The notes under the pieces are model-generated. The model was not told where the DNA came from, searched no databases, and was given only the letters and a program-made list of their open reading frames with translations. A DNA stretch of 54,615 nt, filler included, from Porpidia crustulata (Eukaryota), in assembly GCA_964255105.1 (NCBI GenBank). It is 5 parts of 5 records of this genome, joined end to end, with 100 filler letters (N's around TTAATTAATTAA, not from the genome) between each part and the next. Parts side by side here need not be neighbours in the genome. Positions count along the whole stretch, not along the records: positions 21,939 to 32,784 come from CAXUWE010000722.1; 4 more parts are not named here. One strand, 5' to 3'. Positions 1,566 through 28,135 of this stretch are shown one piece after another. Every line of letters begins with the position of its first letter. Within the stretch, counting starts at the first letter, position 1. The position numbers were made by a program, and so were the translations under genes.

Positions 1566-3193
1566 CTAGTATCCCATGCCGTAGCTCTTGACACGACTCC
1601 AGAAGAATGCCTTGTCATTTCGAAGTCCAAATTCTGCCCAGTCATCGGTCAGCTTATTGTAGCTCCAAAAGCCTTTCCAATTCAATTTGTTATTCCTTGT
1701 GCCACCAGCTCTACCAGCACTTTTTAGTTCCAATTCCATCTTGTAGATGTATTTGTCAGGATGAACGCCTTCGGTCTCAATATGGACGGTTCCTTCTTCC
1801 TCGTCCTCTTTCCCTTGTTCGACATCGTCTCTGCTAGCCCGCACATTGCCACTGAGTCTCCATCTCCCCTTCAATGCATGCTTCATGACCGCACTGGGCA
1901 GAGCCCCTTGCCCATGTTCGTATGAGTGCATGTTTTCCTTTGATATATAATGAACCACGTCCCCCGGCTCAGTGGTCGTAAGCAAGCTGCAGCAAGACCC
2001 GTCACGAAAGAACCGTAGGTAGCGGTAATAAGTCACAATATGGACTGGCGTATTCCAGGACACCTGGGAAGCTGTAGAGGCACCAGGGCGAATGTAGTTA
2101 ACGGTGCTAATATAACAGCCATTGAAGCGGATGCGGGGGCGCCGGCGGAACATGACGGCGTAAGTAGGGTAGGCGGGGCTTAGTGGGAACGGAGACAATG
2201 GTGCGGTGAGATCAGGTTCAGGATAAATAGAGAGAGAGGCGAGAGAGAGTGGTTCTAAGTTGTGCAGTAGTGAGTTGCCCGATATGGAACAGCTCCAAGC
2301 GTACTGCATTGCACTGAAACCATATTCAGAGCCTAGACAAATGCGCCTCCAGATCTGATCTTCGGTAGCCACAAGGTACGCGAAGCGCTTGCTCACAATG
2401 GAAAGGCGAGCAAAAGACGCAATGTCGATGATGGCGGTCTGTGCGAGAATATCAATGAGGATTTCTGACGGGGTAGTTGCAATGGGGCAAGGTGGCGGAG
2501 GAGCCCCTTCGATTGGCGGTTCTGCTGGAACTACTAGAGAGGAAGCAAAAGAAGTAATAAGCTGTGAAACTGTAGATTCGGGGGGCCCGCCTAGGGAGTG
2601 ATGGGCAGTACTTGGGACTGTAACAGAAGCATTGGAGGGATTGGGATTCGTCGGTTTCGACTTGAACGAAGACGGAGGGAAATGCTTGTTCTTGTAGATT
2701 CGATCCACTCCTGCATCAAGCTGAAATTAAATCAACAGATCTTCAGATATCGTAAAACATGCTGAGTGTGTACCCTAAATGCTTTTCTGTAAAGATTGAG
2801 GCTATCCCCTAGATTGCCCTCAGTTTCTCTCTCAACAGCCTTTTCATAATGCTCCAACGCTGAGCTTGGTTCTCGAGCATTTCGAGTCTCTGGATGAATG
2901 CCACCACCTTCTTCACCCAACTTCCGCGCCTCATCTTTGTCTTCTAAATCATGATATGATTGCGTTTGGAGACCATCGTGGGTTTCTCCATCCTTTTGCG
3001 AATTGGGAAAGGACCATGACGAAGGAGCTTGAGATCCGGATGGTTGTTGTATCGAGCTTCCACTTCTTGTTGATCCTAATGGTCTTGCATCCCTACCATC
3101 TCCATTTGAGGATGCTCCTTTCGAGCGAGCAGTGACCTCCTCTTTCCATTGTTTACGGAAATTCTCGAGCTCTAAATCTGCTTCCTCGGCCAT
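1566..3193 (-). CDS. HRT3: F-box protein of the Hrt3/Pof7/FBXO9 family
   Basis: ELENFRKQWKEEV N-terminus; ALEHYEKAVERETEGNLGDSLNLYRKAFR; F-box-like PSEILIDIL...LSIVSKRF; C-terminal RPRIRFNGCYISTVNYIR and VTYYRYLRFF. Intron 2721-2773 (GT..CAG) joins the two ORFs. Confidence 0.85.
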
Positions 3194-3480
3194 CCTAAAG
3201 GTCTGTAGATTGCACTTACGGCTGAATCAGGACTATATTCCCCTACTTCTAGCAAGTCCAACAATTACTTTAGATATCAACGAACGTGCTTGAGTCATCG
3301 ATTAGATACCCTGTTGGCGCAAATAGCCGCGATGGTTTTGCGCGGCTTAGTTCCGCATCAAAAGAAGTTCGGAGGGAAAAAACCTCCCAATCTTAAATTA
3401 CATCATCCCATCACTAGGTAGATTTCCAGTCCTATAAACTAACAACATTGCGCCCGGTCAAGCTCTGTAGTAAGCGTTGG

Positions 3481-4886
3481 ATGTCCGCCTTTGTAACAGA
3501 GCCATTGAGGTCAGACGAGCATCTTTCTGCAAGGCAGCAGCATGGAGATCAGAGAGCTTGGCTCGGCACTGGTCAAGATGTTAATGAAATCAACCACATT
3601 GTGACCATGGACGAATCCAACGAGCCAGACCCTCAGATGGACATTTCGGCTGGGCAGAAGATGCTGTCCGCAGTGTCCGGCAGTCTTCTCACATCTCTTT
3701 TAGGTATATACCCTTCACACGTTACACATGTCTATCTACTGACACACATTGTCTAGTTACCCCCCTTGATGTCGTCCGAGTCCGTATTCAATCTCAACCT
3801 AATTCCACACCAATTCCTATTCGTACGTCAGCATCCCCTCCTTTCTCCTTCTCGAATCTACCTCCAAACCTTGGCGTCACCGCCTGCTGCCGCGAAGTTT
3901 TCTGGGTGAACAACGCCTCATCTTTCTGCATGGCCACCAGCCCTTCCGCCATATTCAGCTCCTCCGAAGCGTCAACTGCTGATTGTGCCGTGGATGAAGC
4001 TCGCCGTAAAACATTTAACTCTACCCTTGATGGATTGCAGAAAATCGCTCGGCACGAAGGTATTACATCTCTATGGAGGGGCCTCTCGCCCACCCTGGTC
4101 ATGGCCATTCCAGCAAACGTGATCTATTTTACGGGCTACGATTACCTACGTGCACATTCTCGAAGCCCTGTAAACACTTACGTTCCCGACGCCTATGCAC
4201 CACTCGCAGCTGGCTCAATAGCCCGTGTCGCAGCGGCAGCAGTCATCAGCCCAATTGAGATGTTTAGGACACGCCTCCAAGCCACAACTTCCAGCACTCA
4301 TGAAATGGGAGCATTCACAGAAACTCTCATTGGTCTCCGAAAAATGGTTCACTCACAGGGATATACTTCGCTCTGGCGGGGCTTGACCCTCACGATGTGG
4401 CGAGATGTTCCCTTCAGTGGCATTTACTGGTGGGGCTACGAAGCAATGCGGAATACCATACATAATATGCGGGACCCGCCGACTCAATTTTCACGGCCTC
4501 GCTCGGCCTCTATCAACGCCGAGAACCACACCGCTACCTTTGTAGACAGCTTTGTTGCAGGAGCTACTTCAGGTGCCGTAGCCTCCGTTATCACCACCCC
4601 TTTCGACGTGGGTAAAACCCGAAGACAGGTGCTCGAACACAGTGGCAGACCCGCAGAAGGAGTGTCTGGGAAAGTAGGCCTTAGACCAGAGGAACGGTCG
4701 ATGCCAAGATTTCTGTATCATATATGGCGGGAAGAGGGCGCTGCAGGATTATTCCGTGGTTGGGCAGCCAGATGCCTGAAGGTAGCGCCCGCGTGTGCGA
4801 TCATGATAAGCAGCTACGAGGTTGGGAAAAAGATGGCTAGAAATATGAATGAGAGGAAGGCGGAGGAAGGGGCAATGAACGCGTGA
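3481..4886 (+). CDS. MTM1: Mitochondrial carrier protein, Mtm1/SLC25A39-40-like
   Basis: Three Px[DE]xx[KR]xR signatures (PLDVVRVR, PIEMFRTR, PFDVGKTR); CCREVF insertion; APACAIMISSYE. Intron 3704-3756. Confidence 0.85.
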
Positions 4887-11057: not shown

Positions 11058-13359
11058 TCATATTAATAAATGGGGCCAGGGATGAAAAACTGACCGGATT
11101 GCGAGCCAGCCGGACATGGGGAGGTCGGCCGTGTCTCTGTAGGGAGGGTCGCGGAGGTTGATCATAGACGAAGGCGCGGCATCGACGGAAGGAAAGGGGA
11201 ATTGTCCGCTTCCGGAGCCCAAGACCCAGAATTTGTGGCCATGAAGATGGATTGGATGGCCCATCTAAAGGAGATCAGCATCGTCAATACCGCGGAAGCC
11301 ATATTTTCCCACTGCAATGAGAATGACCAACCTTGTCCATGGAGTCGTCGGCAACTGCCATGATAATATCGATTGTCGAGTTGGAAGGTAGATGAAGGGT
11401 GGTATTAGCGCTCCAGCCGTCAGAAGAATTTCCGTAAAGAATCGGTATTGAAGCTTCTTTGTATGGGTCACGGTTCATGACCCATGTCACAACGCCGGTC
11501 TGGCTGATGTTCAGCACTGTAGACACATCTGCCTTTCCTGACGGTGGCGAGTCGCTTTGAAATGGATGGAGTAGAGTGGTGTCTAGCGTTGAGGCATTCA
11601 TCGTCGCGGAACCATTCTTGAGTATGTAGATGGGCATTGGATCTTCCCCTACTTCAATCGTGCGTTTGGACATTGTCGCATTCATCTAAGTTGTTAGCAC
11701 TGGTACAGAACAAGGATTCTGTAGAAGTCATACTTTGTACGACACAATTGCTTGTCCGTCCAGGACTTGCTGCATATCGCCCGTTGGGTAAGATGCGAAC
11801 CGCAGATAATAATCGCCAGGGGTTTGATCCAACTTGATCATGACTGAATATCGCTGGCCAATCGAGAGATAAAGGATCTTAATACAAGACTCATTAGTAC
11901 AGGCGTTGAAAGATTTATGAGTGGACTCAACTGACCTTGACCTCTTGTAAAGTGACATAGAGACCGTCGGCGGCATATATAAACATGGAGTGCGCATCGA
12001 GCGACACAGCAAGCCCACTAACGGCGCCTGAATTGACGAGATTGAGGGCTAACCATCCCTGCGTACTATTTGCCGGAATCGTCAACATTGGGGACGTCGT
12101 ATTTGCACATGTTGCAGGAGGAAGGGAATTGATGTTGAAGCCAGGTTTGAACATCATTGGTGGAGTACAGCCTTGTGCATTCAGTGGGCCCATATCTTGT
12201 GAGCTAGACATAGAAGCCATACTCGGCATTGGCGCCATACTTATCATCGAAGTGCTTAGCCCGGTCGAGCTCGAGGTCATCTGCATGGATTCTTCCGCCA
12301 CGGACATATCCATAGTCATCGTGTCGGTCGGCATGCTTGATCCGCTCATATCCATTCTTTTGCTCATTCCCGTCATGCTCGTTCCCATCATGCTCATCCC
12401 TGTCTTGCTCATCCCCATCATACTCGTTGAAGAGGTGCCGGTAGACATCGTCGAAGATGCATTGGTCATGGAAGGAGAAGAATTAAGCCCAAGACCTGTT
12501 CCTGCTTGCAGAATGTTTTCAGAGAGACATTCGACCCGTCCAAGCCCATTTGCGAGAAGGCTGTCGACACAGTTTGGAAACGCGCCAGTCTTGAAATACT
12601 GTGCATAGATCGTGTCCGAGGTGTCATGAGTCCAATCATTGAGGAGGATAGGAAGGGCGTCATGTTCAGTTTGGAGGAGTTTTGTGAGATCAGAATCGCT
12701 CTTGGCAAGTTTCTCAAAGGGCCGAGGATGTGTAGTTGAGGGGTGGATCATTAAAGGACCTCGAATAGCATCGTCGTAGTATGCTCGGAAATGAGAATGA
12801 TACCAGTAGAATCCATATTCGGTTCCAACGGAGAATCTATAGGTAAAATTTCCACCAGGAGCAATTGGGTACTGCGTTTTATTAGATTGTGACACCCGAT
12901 TCATCGTTGTTTGACAACTCACTTGTGTGACCCCAGGAACTCCATCCATCTGCGGTGATCCACGTTGAAGAAGACCTGATTGGATTTCTTAGTACCGACG
13001 TCCTGATCGATTTGACCGTTGCTCCGATATCGCATGTACGGCGTACGAGATATCGGATTACTTACCGTGCCAGTGGATAGTACTCTCCACTGGTAAATCA
13101 TTCTTCACAAAGACCTCGAGATCGTCTCCTTCGTCAATCTCTATCAAAGGCCCAGGCTGTTGACCGTTGATGAGGTACACATCTCGAGTAAAGCCATCTG
13201 GAAGTTCATTATAGAACACCTTTTGGCAGATATGCGATACGATGATCACCTACCAGGAGCTTTCGTGCCGGTATGTAAAGTAAAATTATAAGTACGTAGC
13301 GCCGCTTCAGAAAATCTGCTCGCAACAAGCCATAATGTGAAGAGATTGAACAATGTCAT
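11058..13359 (-). CDS. Secreted multicopper oxidase (laccase-like, AA1) with Met-rich insertion; last exon(s) lost at contig end
   Basis: Signal peptide [19 protein letters not shown] from ATG 13359; copper motifs IHWHG, YWYHSH and [16 protein letters not shown]; several GT-AG introns. The final HCH motif is not present before the low-quality contig end. Confidence 0.9.
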
Positions 13360-21938: not shown

Positions 21939-24900
21939 GAGTGAGGTAGTGCGTGTAAAGGATGCCTCTGTCGCGGAGGAGGTCTTGGGTGAGGTAGGGC
22001 ATTTTGGCCACGCAGGGACTTAGGTATATTTGGGCGTGTTTGAGATTGGGGGTGTGGACCTCTGGTGCTGTGGTGGTCATGGAAGAACGATCCGTAGGTT
22101 TTGGTGGCCCAGCTTCTGGGATTTTGTTGGCTGACATTGTACGATAGCCGGGAGGATAAACCATGCACATGTTAGGTGATTGAGTCCCAGAAGTTGATTT
22201 GGGGTTGGACCCTATTATATCAGGAGATGGTAACATGTGGCTAGTCCCAGGCGTTGCGATCTGCGATGGCCCTTCGCTAATGCGGTCAGGTGTAGTCTCC
22301 CGGTCTTGGGATGAGGTTTCAACGCCTACCCGATACCGTCTGGGTTTCTCATAGGCACCTATCGGGATCTTGGGGACTAGAAATCGTTCAGGGGTCGATG
22401 CTTGCATATGCCGTTCATCGGGTTTCATTGGAGGTGTCTCTCGTGGCCGAGTGGTGGTAGAGGGATTTTGAATGACTTTCAATGTTGCAGCAATTGAAGT
22501 ATCCAGCCGATGCTCGCTTTGATTTTCTTCAGCGTCAAAGGATCGCCTTGCCCTTTTCGATTGTATTGCTTCATCGCCGGAGGTAATCTCTCCACTAACT
22601 GTCTCTTCAATCCTGCGCTTACGGGAAATTTGACAAGATCCTTGGGCAAGATCTTGAAGGATTGTCGGTGGACCTCTTACGTCGGTGATCGTGGGCTCAA
22701 CTTCGTAATACTTAGCTCTGAAGAACCGCCTCGCCTTCTTGAATTGCGTCGCTTCGTCGCTAGAAGTGACCTCTTCACTGGAGATATCCGCAATCTTCCG
22801 TTTGACGTGAGACTTGTGAGATGTAGTTATTAGGCTGGGTAAGCTATGGTTTCTTGCAACACTATCTAAAGCTGCTCGAAATGGCGATGAAGTTGATAGC
22901 GTGATGTCGGTAGAGTCACTGGTCTCCAACTCCCCTGAAATAGATCTTTTCAAGACATTGCCATCCTCCAATCGATACTCTGAATTCTTCATTTCCTTGG
23001 TGTCCATCCGGATCATAGGTGGAACCTCTGACTTACTTCGACCACGACGAGCGGATCCTATAGCTCGATCATACTCCATCCCATCATCCATGTCTTGAGA
23101 ATTTTCCCATGCAGCAAGGACACCTGTAGCACCTCGGTCACCCTTTTTTAGCTGCTCAACCCATTTTGCAGTATCTTCAGCCAGATCGTCGGATGGGACT
23201 AGCTTAGCTGCATTAGCCATGTCTTGTAATTCATTAATCGTCACGGCATCTCTCCAGTCCCTATCCCAATGAATCTTCAAAACGCGTGGGAATCGTAATG
23301 AAAATGTTGTGCGGTTGCCTGCTTTCTCAAACCCTGCGCCCATAACCTCAAAGACAAAAGGTTCTTTGAATACTGCCATCATGTCAGAGACACCTTGCTC
23401 AAGCTTCATGCCAAGAGCCGCTGCCTCTGCCCGAGACTTCACTTCAACAGCTTTAAACTGACCTAGCTGATTCAGGCTTTTGATGTCTTCTGGCTTGATG
23501 CAGAGATTCAGAGCGTCAATGACAATGAAATGTGGCTTTGCACCATCCTGAATCACCTTGTCTTTATTTGTCAGACAGCCAATATGAAAATGAGTCCACT
23601 TTAGTTTTAGCCCGATAAATTTCTTGGCCTCAACAACGTCATAGCCTGCACCCACAACTGCAAAGTCCGCAGTATCTCCCAAGCCTTTGATGTAGTCCTT
23701 TTTCAGCTTCATCCAACAGCTGGGAAAACCACCAGCTGACGGCTTAGTGCTGATATAAGGTTCGTCGGACGGTTTCAACACAAGTCCTTCCCACCGCATT
23801 GCACAGGCGCGAGCCAGTGCTTCTTGCAGGTAGCTTGGACCGCTTGGTGAAGATAGATCAATCACGGCTCGGATACCCAATCCTGTGCGGCCTGCTATAG
23901 GTTCTATCAATTTCTTTAGATACCGTCTTCTGCGTCTATGTGGTTCATCAATAAGGGAATAATCGTCGACAAGCATAACGTCGTAGAATATAATCATAAG
24001 ATGCTCAAAATCATGGGGTCTAATGTAGTTTAGCTAGCTTATCAGATAATTGACATAGGAATTAACTCACTGGGAATCAAAATTCGTACCCAGAAAAGCA
24101 CCAGACCGAGAAACGTGCTTCCGTATTTTACAAAAATCAAGAATGTTTTTTTCCCTATCGCTCCAAACGACCAATTCCCCTTCCAGAATGCATTTCTTGG
24201 AAAAGATACAGTCTTCGTGGCCAATCCGGAGGCACTGTCTGATCGACTCGTGCAACCCGGCCCGATCGACAGTGGAATCCTTGCCGCTTTTGGAGAATAT
24301 CTTAATCCACTTCTCTCCAGCGTCGAGGTCAACATGAATTTGGCAATACTCGCCATCATACTTTCTCTCGACGCTCACATTCCGCCGCCCAAGCACGCCG
24401 ACGGCATGTTTGACGCTCCGACCCACAAGAAAACTAGGTCTACCAATCTTCATCCCAACCTTGGGCGTAAGAGCATGAGTCGTACTCGAAGCCAGTTGCA
24501 CCATGCCATTTGTTGCATCCGGGTGAGGGATGGACGTCGCGGAGCCGCGAAGCATGCCGATGGCCGCTTCGAAAGTATCGTAAACCTTTATATACTGTGG
24601 CAATTCCGGATGAAGGCACTTGAGAACCCACGTCAAAGGTAAGTCGAGAGCTCCAAGGTCCTTCATCAGTATCCTTGTGAACCATTTGGCCTCCCGGGAT
24701 TGTAATCGCCTGTAGATGGACTCCAAGATTTGATCCACCTCCTTTGGATCTTCGTTTTCTTTGCTCTCCCTCACATCGGGCGCAGAGAAACGATTTCTTG
24801 CGGCCAACTTCGCCAATGCACTATCTACCTGTTCCAAAGTGGCTTGGTTCTCAGGGTTCTGCATGGGAAATTCCGATTCCTTGAGTGCCCGCTCCACACA

Positions 24901-25236
24901 TTCCCCAAGGTCTCCTCGACCATGGTCGTTCCACTGGTCTAGCATCCCCCATCTCCCAACGCCTAGACACAGACATCTTCTTAGTCTTCTTGACAACGAG
25001 CGTGCTTTGAGGCTGAAGACACGGTCCGTCCTTCGCTCGGGAAAAAAGGTAGATAGCAGAGCTACCGGATCGATTTCGAGTGAGTGAAGAGTAATCCTAT
25101 GCCCAAGAAACCATTGCTTTGTCCTCTCCCGTATCCTATACTGCTTACGAGTAAGAGGAACCAAAGGTGGGTCACAAATGCAGTACGATTCAATGTCCGA
25201 CAATAGTGTACAAAAATCATAAAACTGAAGAGGCAT
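21939..25236 (-). CDS. ATP-dependent DNA ligase (divergent, ligase IV-related), 3' truncated
   Basis: Motif I ERKYDGEY, ILEGEL, IFYDV, WEGLVLK, WMKLKKDY, LRFPR; N-terminal DNA-binding domain. Intron 24020-24070; ATG 25236. Confidence 0.9.
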
Positions 25237-26242
25237 CACGAGAGTGCGCAATCACCAGATATCTTGTAATTGTGCAGGGCGTCTTTCAAACCCAACGACT
25301 GCAAAGAAAGCAAATGCGGTAGCAATATATACTGATAAGCCATACCGACCAAAAATATAATGAAAACACCCAAGAGAGGTGAGTCTCAATGTTGTGGAAA
25401 TGAAGATAGGTGATGGAGAAATGAAAGAAAAATAAGAATGAAGTGAAAATGTGGTTAACATCATGAAGACGTCTTTGTTTGGTAGCGGTATTCACGTGAT
25501 CATATGCTCCCGCTTAGCGCCATCGTATGCAGATTGCCAGATATCCAAAAGGGCAGGTGGAAGCGATATGGTGATAACTAATGTGTCAGTATAGGACCGT
25601 CAACGTCTACAAGGAAAAGACGTGGATTTACTTCAACACTACGATTCTAGTTAACGCATTCCGAGACACTGGCTTTCATTCATAGAAGCAGCTGTGACAA
25701 TCGGCAGCAAGTCGCCAATGTGCCGCATCCAAAGTTTCAAACCCGATTCACAGTTGACGAAGGAGCCAGTGTCATGAGTGAGATAAATCTCGCGATCACA
25801 AAGTCACTCAAGATTGAATCTGCACGAATTGGAGAAACATGATTGGTATCCGCAAGGACTAGAAACACCCATCCATCCACCCCGAAACGCCTGATTCCCT
25901 CGACAACCGGAAAATCCATCTAGGAATAACAAATCCCCCGTGATACGAATACAAGATTGACCCCGTCAGCGTGCTCCAAGATTTGCGCCTGTTTACCCCT
26001 GGTGATGCCGCCCTGAAAGTGATCGATTTTCGCACAACCAACTTGTCCGTTTTCTTGTATGCTGTCTCCCTTGAAAATTTTGTCAGAGCCCAATACCAAC
26101 AAACCCCGAGTGTCACCCTTCGTCAAGTAGTGCCTCCGACTATTCAGTGCAAGTCGGAAACATAAAGGTTAAACACCGCTGTGATCCTAGTCCCTAGAGA
26201 ATTTCATACCACGATTTGAACGCCGGGCCCTAAGCATTCTAG

Positions 26243-26376
26243 GTTCAACTCGCGGACATACACCGTAGTCAGTCACGCGAGGAACAGCTAAAGATTCTTG
26301 GGCCGAAGGAGATGGCGAGTGTTGTTTCGAGACTCAACCCGTGGACATGCACCGTAGTCAGTCACACGAGGAATCT
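26243..26376 (-). ncRNA. Two tandem copies of a structured RNA hairpin with cUACGg tetraloop (candidate cis-regulatory 3' UTR element)
   Basis: Copies at 26243-26285 and 26330-26376 share a 40-nt core with 36/40 identity; all differences are compensatory or wobble-compatible on the minus strand. Confidence 0.65.
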
Positions 26377-26743
26377 TAAAAAACGTGGGTGGGTATTGAG
26401 TGAAGGCAACGAAGGAACTAATAGAGGTGGATGTCCGTAGCTGGTGCTCAATTGCTGGGAGCGCTGCAAACATCTAAAGTTTAACGCGCAGAGCGTTTTT
26501 TTGGGGGATTTTCATTTTCATTCTTTTTTTGGTATTCGTAGTAATAGAAGGTCCAAGACGTCGACAGAGACGTAGTGATGGACGGGGCTGGAACAAGTAA
26601 GTATAGATGATGATGCTGTTGAAAGGTTTAGTGCTAGGAAGGTCGAGGTGAAGAGAAGCCGGTCCGAAAATTACTGAGCATGATGATAGTCATTTCCAGT
26701 GCCCAAGCTGAAGAAATGACATGAAGTTCCAATATGAAACTTC

Positions 26744-28135
26744 TCAGATCGAAGTAGCGAGGTTGGCGCCATCCACGATTGCAGGGACGTCAGTAACGAC
26801 CTGAAGAGCACAGACGGATGTGCTGGACCGAGCCAAGTCTTGAGTAACGTTGTCATTGTCACCCTTTACGCTCTCGCTCTCCCAGATCTCAACCTCGGGT
26901 TGCTCTTGAACAGCATTGTCATTCTCCATCGCAGCGTTGGTGGTACCCTTAACCTGGCTAGTCGAGGTCAGAAACCCGTTCCAACCACTTGCGTGTTCGG
27001 CATTGTTGTCAATGCTTGGTTGGTAAAGTGATGAGCCTACCACAGCTCCAGAGGTGCTGGCAACTTTCTCGTTGACATCAACAGCTTCTTCGTCGGCGGG
27101 GACAACGAAGAAGGATGAAGCATCACAGTCTTCAGAATAGAATTCTTCAGCGTTGAGGCTACCAAGGGGGGTGCGAGGCTCATCAGTCATGATGTCGGCC
27201 CTCGAGGTCGTGACGTTGCTAGAGGATGCAACGTAGCCAGGAGGTGGGATATTCTCCTTGCCGCGATCATTCTTCGCGGCAATACGGCTCTCATCTTCGG
27301 AGGAGATATCGAGAGTCTTGGTAGAGTGTTCCATCATGTTGCCAGCATACTGTTCGTCGGTGTCTTCATAAACATTGAATATCCATGTTCTCTTGACGGG
27401 AATGGCCGACTTCAAGTTGATGTCCTCGGCAAGCAGATTGGATTTGGAAATGGTGCCCGTGGAGGAAATAGCGGCATTCAGAGAGATAGGCGAGCGAATA
27501 TGAGAGTCAGCATTAGCGAAAGATGGAGGATCGACGCGGGAATAAGAGGCCGAAGACACACGACGACGTGACAATAGACCAATACGCTTCTTTGTGGGTG
27601 ATCTACCTGCAGGAGCAGGTGCCGACGAATGTTGGAGACGTCGGCTCTTATGAGCTCTATCCGAAACAACTGGTGTTGATGGAATCTCCGCTTTACGCTT
27701 CAGGAGCTTGGCGGGAATGATAATAGGCCGCTCAACGACAGCAGGGGTAGGAGAAGCGTTAGTAAGTACATAATGGTTCTTGTTGGCCTCGGCGTGGTCA
27801 TTGGCGAAAGTCTTAGCTTCGACATTGGAAGTCTTGAACTTCTTATTAGACAACAAGGACAGGATGGCAGGGTCAATATTTTCCGAATTTTCGTCCTCGA
27901 AGTCGTGCGGTGCATTTCGCTTGCGAGAGGATGGTTTTGCAGTGGCGTTAACGGTAAGAGCTGGACGTAGTGTAAGTAAACAATAAGAGTAACCTTGAAG
28001 AATATGGGTTATATTCAGTGAGCGAGTTAACATACCAGCTTGCTGGTTCTTAACATCTACCAATCTACGAAGCCTCCCACCACTCACAGAACCGAGAGCT
28101 TGTCTAGTCGAAAACATCTCGGCAAGCACTGACAT
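26744..28135 (-). CDS. Disordered protein with D-box, ABBA, KEN and D-box motifs; Acm1-like APC/C pseudosubstrate inhibitor candidate
   Basis: ATG 28135; in-frame intron 27961-28035. Motifs RQALGSV, FNVYEDT, GKENIPP, RTPLGSLNAEEF; Cdk site RSPTKK. Confidence 0.7.
   Translation of the reverse strand: MSVLAEMFSTRQALGSVSGGRLRRLVDVKNQQAGMLTRSLNITHILQGYSYCLLTLRPALTVNATAKPSSRKRNAPHDFEDENSENIDPAILSLLSNKKFKTSNVEAKTFANDHAEANKNHYVLTNASPTPAVVERPIIIPAKLLKRKAEIPSTPVVSDRAHKSRRLQHSSAPAPAGRSPTKKRIGLLSRRRVSSASYSRVDPPSFANADSHIRSPISLNAAISSTGTISKSNLLAEDINLKSAIPVKRTWIFNVYEDTDEQYAGNMMEHSTKTLDISSEDESRIAAKNDRGKENIPPPGYVASSSNVTTSRADIMTDEPRTPLGSLNAEEFYSEDCDASSFFVVPADEEAVDVNEKVASTSGAVVGSSLYQPSIDNNAEHASGWNGFLTSTSQVKGTTNAAMENDNAVQEQPEVEIWESESVKGDNDNVTQDLARSSTSVCALQVVTDVPAIVDGANLATSI

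Follow-up and report, generated by a model that had tools for sequence, protein, structure and literature searches.

In the 54.6-kb stretch of Porpidia crustulata DNA that was analysed (hereafter the window), a 1.5-kb non-coding stretch separates two ORFs on the minus strand: a 463-aa ORF at positions 26744..28135, with its stop codon at 26744-26746, and, downstream of it on the same strand, an ORF for an ATP-dependent DNA ligase at 24067-25236 that comprises the N-terminal and adenylation domains. Between 25237 and 26743, no ATG-started ORF reaches a length of 80 aa. Two hairpins, designated copy A and copy B, sit in this non-coding stretch, with copy A starting 368 nt past the end of the 463-aa ORF.

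The protein encoded upstream of the hairpins is a largely low-complexity but conserved ascomycete protein, whose best relative among the 120 listed is 57% identical. The named relatives among these 120 are all hypothetical proteins of lichen-forming fungi (e.g. Xylographa, Lasallia, Umbilicaria, Cladonia, Lepraria and Ramalina). The protein contains an ABBA-like motif (F253-N-V-Y-E-D258), a KEN box (K293-E-N295) and a D-box of the RxxL type (R321-T-P-L324), and residues F253, K293, E294, N295, R321 and L324 are invariant in the alignment of 17 relatives. All three motifs match the consensus given in PMC6534075 (ABBA, Fx[ILV][FY]x[DE]; KEN box; D-box, RxxL). A homologue in the Atlas gave a weak, sub-threshold securin lead (score 0.78 versus a line of 0.9) and otherwise unnamed ascomycete clusters. 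Judged from these short motifs, the protein is a candidate APC/C substrate or pseudosubstrate (of the kind of Acm1, Mes1 or securin), which the motif set would fit. The label of an Acm1-like, putative cell-cycle inhibitor, given to the gene in an earlier note on this DNA, is backed by the conservation of ABBA, KEN and D-box type motifs but not by a Pfam match, as no family was found for the window protein or its 16 relatives.

Copy A spans 47 nt (26330..26376, minus strand; predicted fold of -18.4 kcal/mol) and copy B 43 nt (26243..26285, minus strand; -18.2 kcal/mol). Copy A is built from a basal stem, a UU bulge, a covarying 6-bp stem, a U bulge, an invariant apical module and the loop UACG. 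The apical module comprises 20 nt in both copies, reading GACUGAC-UACG-GUGCAUGUC in copy A (26344..26363, minus strand) and GACUGAC-UACG-GUGUAUGUC in copy B (26255..26274, minus strand), and corresponds to invariant columns in the alignment of related hairpins described below. The spacer between the copies (26286..26329, minus strand) is unconserved between lineages in an alignment of the 3' flanks, and the distance from the start of A to the start of B, 89 nt in the window, amounts to 105-158 nt in other lineages. A repeat finder assigned the two copies to one two-copy repeat family, D1, with 85% identity over 48 nt. The 16-nt hairpin core occurs exactly twice in the window versus 0.28 occurrences expected, and a count of at least 2 was reached in 3 of 100 shuffles. 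When folded as minus-strand RNA, the copies gave z scores of -2.48 (A) and -4.05 (B); the corresponding plus-strand folds had energies of -11.3 and -16.1 kcal/mol and z scores of -1.06 and -3.93.

Both copies were thus found where the earlier note had placed a duplicated minus-strand hairpin, and their comparison agrees with its statements that every difference between them keeps pairing and that the loop and bulges are invariant. The copies differ at 7 positions, all of them transitions and all in paired positions, with no pair lost, and are identical in the loop and in the bulges. These differences amount to two double compensatory changes (A-U to G-C and U-A to C-G) and three wobble changes. 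In simulations, 7 random transitions all fell in pairs and left every pair intact in 0.6-0.7% of trials; when substitutions to any base were allowed, all changes fell in pairs and all pairs were kept in 0.0025-0.004% of trials. Given the result of the transition simulation, the two window copies by themselves are suggestive rather than proof of selection, and the strong evidence is supplied by other genomes.

Using a protein alignment with 16 relatives, we obtained 73 loci from metagenome contigs, with the gene oriented on the plus strand. These loci, which comprise 825,264 bases, were searched on both strands with a covariance model made from window copies A and B alone and with a second model rebuilt from the matches of the first. 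On the window itself, with filters off, the first model returned only copies A and B (72.4 and 70.2 bits; 61.6 and 60.5 bits under the second model), the next match scoring 11.1 bits. On the 73 loci it returned 33 matches in 21 loci, all on the sense strand of the gene. The second model gave 35 matches at E <= 1.6e-8, the window's two included, and 3 junk matches at E >= 5. Many of the loci represent one organism assembled repeatedly, and lineages were defined by hairpin sequence. Five lineages besides the window were distinguished in this way: L001-L008 (with L026), L009-L012, L013 with L029, L014 with L015 and L017, and L018 with L027 and L028. Together with the window, the 6 lineages contain 15 distinct hairpin sequences. 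A search of orthologue flanks with a model of both copies, as proposed in the earlier note, therefore recovers the structure, conserved and covarying, in 21 of the 73 loci. Immediately ahead of the core, where the window has one unpaired U, the relatives have a second unpaired base beside it.

In 20 of the 21 loci, the distance from the stop codon to the start of the first copy is 246-318 nt; the second copy, if present, starts at 399-423 nt. In the exception, L026, the first hairpin lies 2749 nt past the stop codon. This locus, an allele of the L005 locus with 92.6% identity to it, has a low-complexity insertion of ~2.5 kb at the end of the CDS; the inserted sequence (1757-4296) is minisatellite-like and open in several frames on both strands, after which the 3' flank with the hairpin resumes. 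The hairpin of L026 differs by one C-to-U change, with a G.U pair kept. In L025, the same insertion runs from 1757 to the contig end. The loci L001-L008 have a single intact copy, so two copies are not obligatory. A decayed-looking second copy was noticed by eye in L001 (~11797-11845), ~100 nt past the intact hairpin and below detection by the second model; the words of the basal stem and part of the 3' arm are recognisable there, and the invariant 5' arm is gone.

On the other 52 loci, the second model returned nothing significant. A weak candidate in L032 (1805-1852; 12.6 bits, E 5) was rejected, being without the hairpin fold. Scanning by hand for C-U-N-C-G-G in the 1 kb past the stop codon of hairpin-negative loci gave scattered matches, all without the invariant arms, and a filters-off search of the 3' flanks of L056 and L058 gave no copy. 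The exact 22-nt core pattern had no match in the metagenome contigs. We also noted a UUCG-capped hairpin ~190 nt past the stop codon in L054 and L056 (L056 ~11440-11480), composed of a 4-bp stem, a 2x2 loop, a 4-bp stem and an unpaired G. Given its different upper stem, we left it out of the count; a replacement of the element, a strongly diverged form of it and chance are all conceivable.

In the model-fitted alignment of the 15 distinct sequences, 94.4% of 268 cells were paired and 10 of the 19 pairs were changed on both sides (32 cells), counts that rest on 6 lineages and include paralogous copies within a genome, which are not fully independent of each other. None of 500 shuffles reached the observed values on four of five measures, and 35 of 500 did so on the fifth. 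When the partner was slid by 1-3 columns, pairing fell to 21-51%. An alignment made with MAFFT, independent of the model, had 90.9% of 285 cells paired and likewise 10 of 19 pairs changed on both sides, with 0 of 500 shuffles reaching the observed values on four measures, while 181 did so on the remaining one; its 13 inner pairs showed zero unpaired cells in the 15 sequences. The six-pair middle stem was found in at least 6 different complementary versions, e.g. CUCGUG/CACGGG, CUUGUG/CACAAG, UUCGUA/UACGAA, CUGGUA/UACUGG and CCUGUA/UACAGG. The 20-nt apical module, GACUGAC-UNCG-GUG[U/C]AUGUC, is invariant in the 15 distinct copies with few exceptions, namely loop position 2, the U/C position, the C-to-U change of L026 and a 2-nt insertion in copy 2 of L014.

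The consensus structure calculated with RNAalifold had an energy of -12.55 kcal/mol and 1 broken cell on the sense strand versus -8.14 kcal/mol and 15 C.A/A.C cells on the antisense strand, in line with the earlier statement that the G-U wobbles work on the minus strand of the window only. The covarying stem has zero broken cells on the sense strand, and the ~30 G.U cells of the sense strand are C.A mismatches on the opposite strand. This asymmetry indicates that selection acts on an RNA, or at any rate on one strand, with the orientation of the gene.

The loop U-N-C-G is closed by a C-G pair in all 15 distinct copies (C-U-N-C-G-G), and its second position is A in 4 copies, U in 9, C in 1 and G in 1, as expected of a UNCG tetraloop, in which this base is free. 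In the tetraloop register, which leaves a single unpaired G and a single unpaired U on the 3' side, no pair is broken in any of the 15 sequences. ViennaRNA favours another register, by 1.5-2.7 kcal/mol, in 13 of the 14 full-length distinct copies, copy B included, so that only window copy A prefers the tetraloop register. The other register consists of a 2x2 internal loop (UG/AU), A-U and C-G pairs and a six-base loop, U-N-C-G-G-U, and is broken once, by one A.C cell. The cUNCGg tetraloop described in the earlier note hence fits every sequence, but the energy model mostly prefers the six-base loop; the two apical registers are predicted to be close in energy.

The identity of the downstream neighbour varies between lineages. 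In the window, L001-8, L009-12 and L029, it is the DNA ligase gene, on the same strand; in L018 and L027 this gene is instead located 4-5 kb upstream, on the opposite strand. L014/L015 gave no match to it, the flank of L014 reaching ~9.9 kb past the stop codon. The next recognisable ORFs past the hairpins of L014 run convergently and resemble, as named by eye, a carbon-nitrogen hydrolase and a DEAD-box helicase. In L018, most ORFs within ~5 kb past the hairpins are on the opposite strand, among them the one that is by far the longest (550 aa). Among loci without the element, the ligase gene of L058-L060 was seen on the upstream side, on the same strand. Since the hairpins stay in place despite these changes of neighbour, the element goes with the upstream gene, at its 3' end.

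When six 3' flanks were aligned, conservation was confined to the two hairpins and to one small block close to the stop codon, and no conserved features were found between lineages further downstream of the hairpins. The near-stop block is the weaker of the two signals and lies ~45-60 nt past the stop codon (26689..26704, minus strand, in the window), with the sequence GGGCACUGGAAAUGAC in the window and GCGCUGGACGUUUGC in relatives. It was located at ~11428-11445 in L001, at ~11127-11142 in L009 and at equivalent places in L013, L029 and L018, and is absent at the equivalent place in L014. In several lineages, a weak hairpin with a five-base loop of the CNGGN type is possible there (-1.3 to -3.6 kcal/mol). 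We regard it as a separate conserved block that may be, as a weaker candidate only, a companion of the hairpins.

For the analysis of age and range, a protein tree of 66 rows was built, from which loci with a best matching stretch below 230 residues and identical proteins were excluded. The 15 hairpin-bearing rows all group with the 12 named Lecanoromycetes proteins in one clade of 32 rows (SH-aLRT 97), within which the hairpin-bearing rows fall in at least 3 sub-clades: next to Umbilicariaceae, inside a Lecanorales-like group, and the window together with L001-L008. Five rows of the clade had no match (L025, L054, L056, L058 and L060). L025 is uninformative, as its contig ends within the insertion, and the other four form a long-branch group whose placement was flagged as unsafe by the tree tool. 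Outside the clade, none of the 34 rows carries the element, and in 18 of these the flank is 600 nt or longer. Most simply, the element arose at the base of the Lecanoromycetes, or close to it, and was later lost in some lines. Copies 1 and 2 of L009-12 are the counterparts of copies 1 and 2 of L013/29, and the same copy 2 is also present in L018/27/28, so the duplication predates these lineages. In the window, and likewise in L014, the similarity between the two copies is higher, which suggests conversion or re-duplication.

Across the window and the 73 related loci, significant matches occur solely at the orthologous place behind the upstream gene. The idea that the unit is a dispersed transposon fragment, raised in the earlier note, finds no support here: there are 2 copies in the window and, in 825 kb of related loci, none outside the orthologous place. 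Among the contigs of run X1, the source contig alone covers the hairpins; its records are filtered, and the inference on dispersal that they allow is weak. Run X3, from a different organism within the same study, has two contigs (151 nt at depth 2 and 15,336 nt at depth 64) that match the hairpins only, with ~87-89% identity and unrelated flanks; the matches cover 26245-26283 with 5 other letters and 26329-26364 with 4 other letters. These contigs were considered as a sign of dispersal, which was dropped once the orthologous-locus matches appeared; they are probably the conserved hairpins of a further lineage, in diverged orthologous loci. A match to 25266-25301 in run X2 (6 other letters in 36) was set aside as being at chance level by estimate.

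The hairpins are a selected RNA structure that is strand-specific, tied to the upstream gene and old. In our best explanation, to which we assign a probability of about 0.6, they are a cis-acting RNA element of the sense strand, located most likely in the 3' UTR of the upstream gene and probably serving as a protein-binding site. An invariant, irregular top on a stem in which only pairing is kept is found in classic protein-binding mRNA hairpins, and for this reason the units are taken as docking sites. The lower stem, with free sequence and kept pairing, would present the apical module, and the latter would be the putative docking site for a sequence- and shape-specific RNA-binding factor. 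Tandem units would allow two factors, or a dimer, to bind cooperatively, and the outcome may be control of the stability, translation or location of the message. We infer, accordingly with this scheme, that the hairpins lie inside the mature mRNA, are bound by protein and have a regulatory effect.

The main rival is an entry site for a nuclease, with the hairpins being RNase III-type substrates at or beyond the poly(A) site that act in 3'-end formation, fail-safe termination or destruction of read-through transcripts. Tetraloop-capped hairpins serve as RNase III entry sites in yeast mRNAs, and the long stem (19 pairs) with a compact loop cap would be suitable for this role, as would the presence of the element with both co-oriented and convergent next genes. 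The distance from the stop codon is fixed at ~250-370 nt, which lies near the usual end of a fungal 3' UTR. However, the signal of the yeast enzyme is AGNN and the loop here is U-N-C-G, and the measuring of stem length needs no 20-nt invariant module with fixed bulges; we consider this explanation unlikely. Less likely is a reading as one or two small non-coding RNA genes in their own right, or as small RNAs cut from the tail of the transcript. A highly conserved core on a covarying stem is a feature of stand-alone structured RNAs, and no coding potential was seen (the copies differ at paired positions and there is no ORF of at least 80 aa), but in each of the 6 lineages the hairpins keep their place and strand with respect to the stop codon despite downstream rearrangement. 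Moreover, a 47-nt unit is short for a Dicer-type precursor, and inspection revealed neither an ACA tail past the second hairpin nor a conserved T-run terminator. With no Rfam match, snoRNAs included, and no ACA following hairpin B, an H/ACA snoRNA was rejected, and the small RNA reading as a whole appears improbable.

The remaining two explanations are less likely as well. The arms might mimic splice signals, with the hairpin masking or revealing them and thereby controlling a 3'-UTR intron or the recruitment of snRNPs: in most copies the 5' arm contains ACUGAC, which resembles the filamentous-fungal branch site, and the 3' arm GUAUGU, which resembles a 5' splice site, and two near-isoenergetic apical registers would suit a switch. 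This resemblance was noticed after the fact, window copy A reads GUGCAU and not GUGUAU, and inspection revealed no conserved 3' splice site past the branch-like word, where the first AG is a GAG in most copies and is missing in window copy B. A 3'-UTR intron was rejected for want of that site, and an intron from copy 1 to copy 2 could not be general since L001-L008 have one intact copy; we regard splice mimicry as very improbable. A DNA-level element, i.e. a palindromic transcription-factor site or a small mobile inverted repeat, is largely refuted. Each unit is indeed an imperfect palindrome, and in four groups this stretch doubles as the upstream region of the ligase gene, yet the element stays put where that gene has moved away, the half-site sequences covary rather than stay conserved, and the sense-strand G.U cells become C.A mismatches on the other strand. 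Copy number also speaks against mobility, with two copies in the window and none in the related loci outside the orthologous place.

Returning to a protein-binding element in the 3' UTR, a more specific version can be proposed tentatively, and we hold it to be possible rather than probable. The hairpins and a dedicated RNA-binding protein may form a regulatory pair across the Lecanoromycetes, with a logic like that of IRE/IRP or histone stem-loop/SLBP, that would act on the mRNA to set the timing or level of an APC/C-degron-rich (Acm1- or securin-like) cell-cycle protein, the two registers acting as a switch read by the protein partner.

Several known systems share part of this architecture. 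The IRE, an animal element read by IRP1/2, is likewise a small hairpin with an invariant apical part, a fixed unpaired base and a paired lower stem of free sequence; it also occurs in tandem copies in 3' UTRs, where IREs control mRNA stability through their binding protein. Its loop is six bases long and differs in sequence, and its bulge is a C in the 5' strand of the stem, whereas the hairpins described here have a U-N-C-G loop and an unpaired G and U on the 3' side. The SRE, recognised by Smaug/Vts1, is a 3'-UTR hairpin found in fungi too, with a CNGGN loop on a free stem, and pairs of SREs can act together. Our hairpins are similar in their probable 3'-UTR position, fungal host, paired occurrence and free stem sequence, but their loops are U-N-C-G and their conserved part is the upper stem; a CNGGN-like word is present in the separate near-stop block, whose stem is weak. 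With the substrates of Rnt1-type RNase III, whose signal is an AGNN tetraloop and whose hairpins in yeast mRNAs can trigger decay or termination, they would share tetraloop-capped stems in fungal transcripts; they differ in the U-N-C-G loop and in the invariant bulged upper stem, which has no counterpart there. The UNCG tetraloop class matches in the U-N-C-G loop and the C-G closing pair, with all four bases met at N, but this class defines a fold and not a function, and the energy model favours the six-base loop in 13 of 14 copies.

Searching window positions 25500-27500 against Rfam 15 with cmscan (E <= 10) gave 3 weak matches, none of them over the hairpins and with the IRE among the families that gave no match there, consistent with the remark in the earlier note that no described motif was recognised. 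Gao, Jones and Rivas (2021; PMC8216456) report 17 covariation-supported fungal structures, five of which are in 3' UTRs (thioredoxin, RING-finger protein, thioesterase family protein, GLY1 and MET13). These are similar to our element, which probably lies in a 3' UTR as well, in being gene-linked, single-locus structures of Pezizomycotina with compensatory changes and differ in the genes concerned, and the element described here is tandem and was found in the Lecanoromycetes clade only; the hairpin motif is not among the 17 structures tabulated there. A literature search joining Lecanoromycetes, UTR and stem-loop found no paper in the collection searched, and one on UNCG tetraloops in Pezizomycotina UTRs found, among the papers listed, unrelated work only. 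Based on sequence comparison, this marks the tandem hairpins as an undescribed motif and a candidate regulatory RNA of the upstream gene's message.

The proteins of the lineages that carry the invariant 20 nt are just 36-53% identical to that of the window. Twenty nucleotides unchanged across such diverged proteins, on top of a covarying stem, are a strong mark of function. To our knowledge, almost no post-transcriptional regulatory elements have been described in lichen-forming fungi. Other lichen genomes can be annotated for the element with the covariance model, and the hairpins offer a bait for isolating a new RNA-binding factor as well as a handle on the control of a probable cell-cycle regulator in slow-growing symbiotic fungi.
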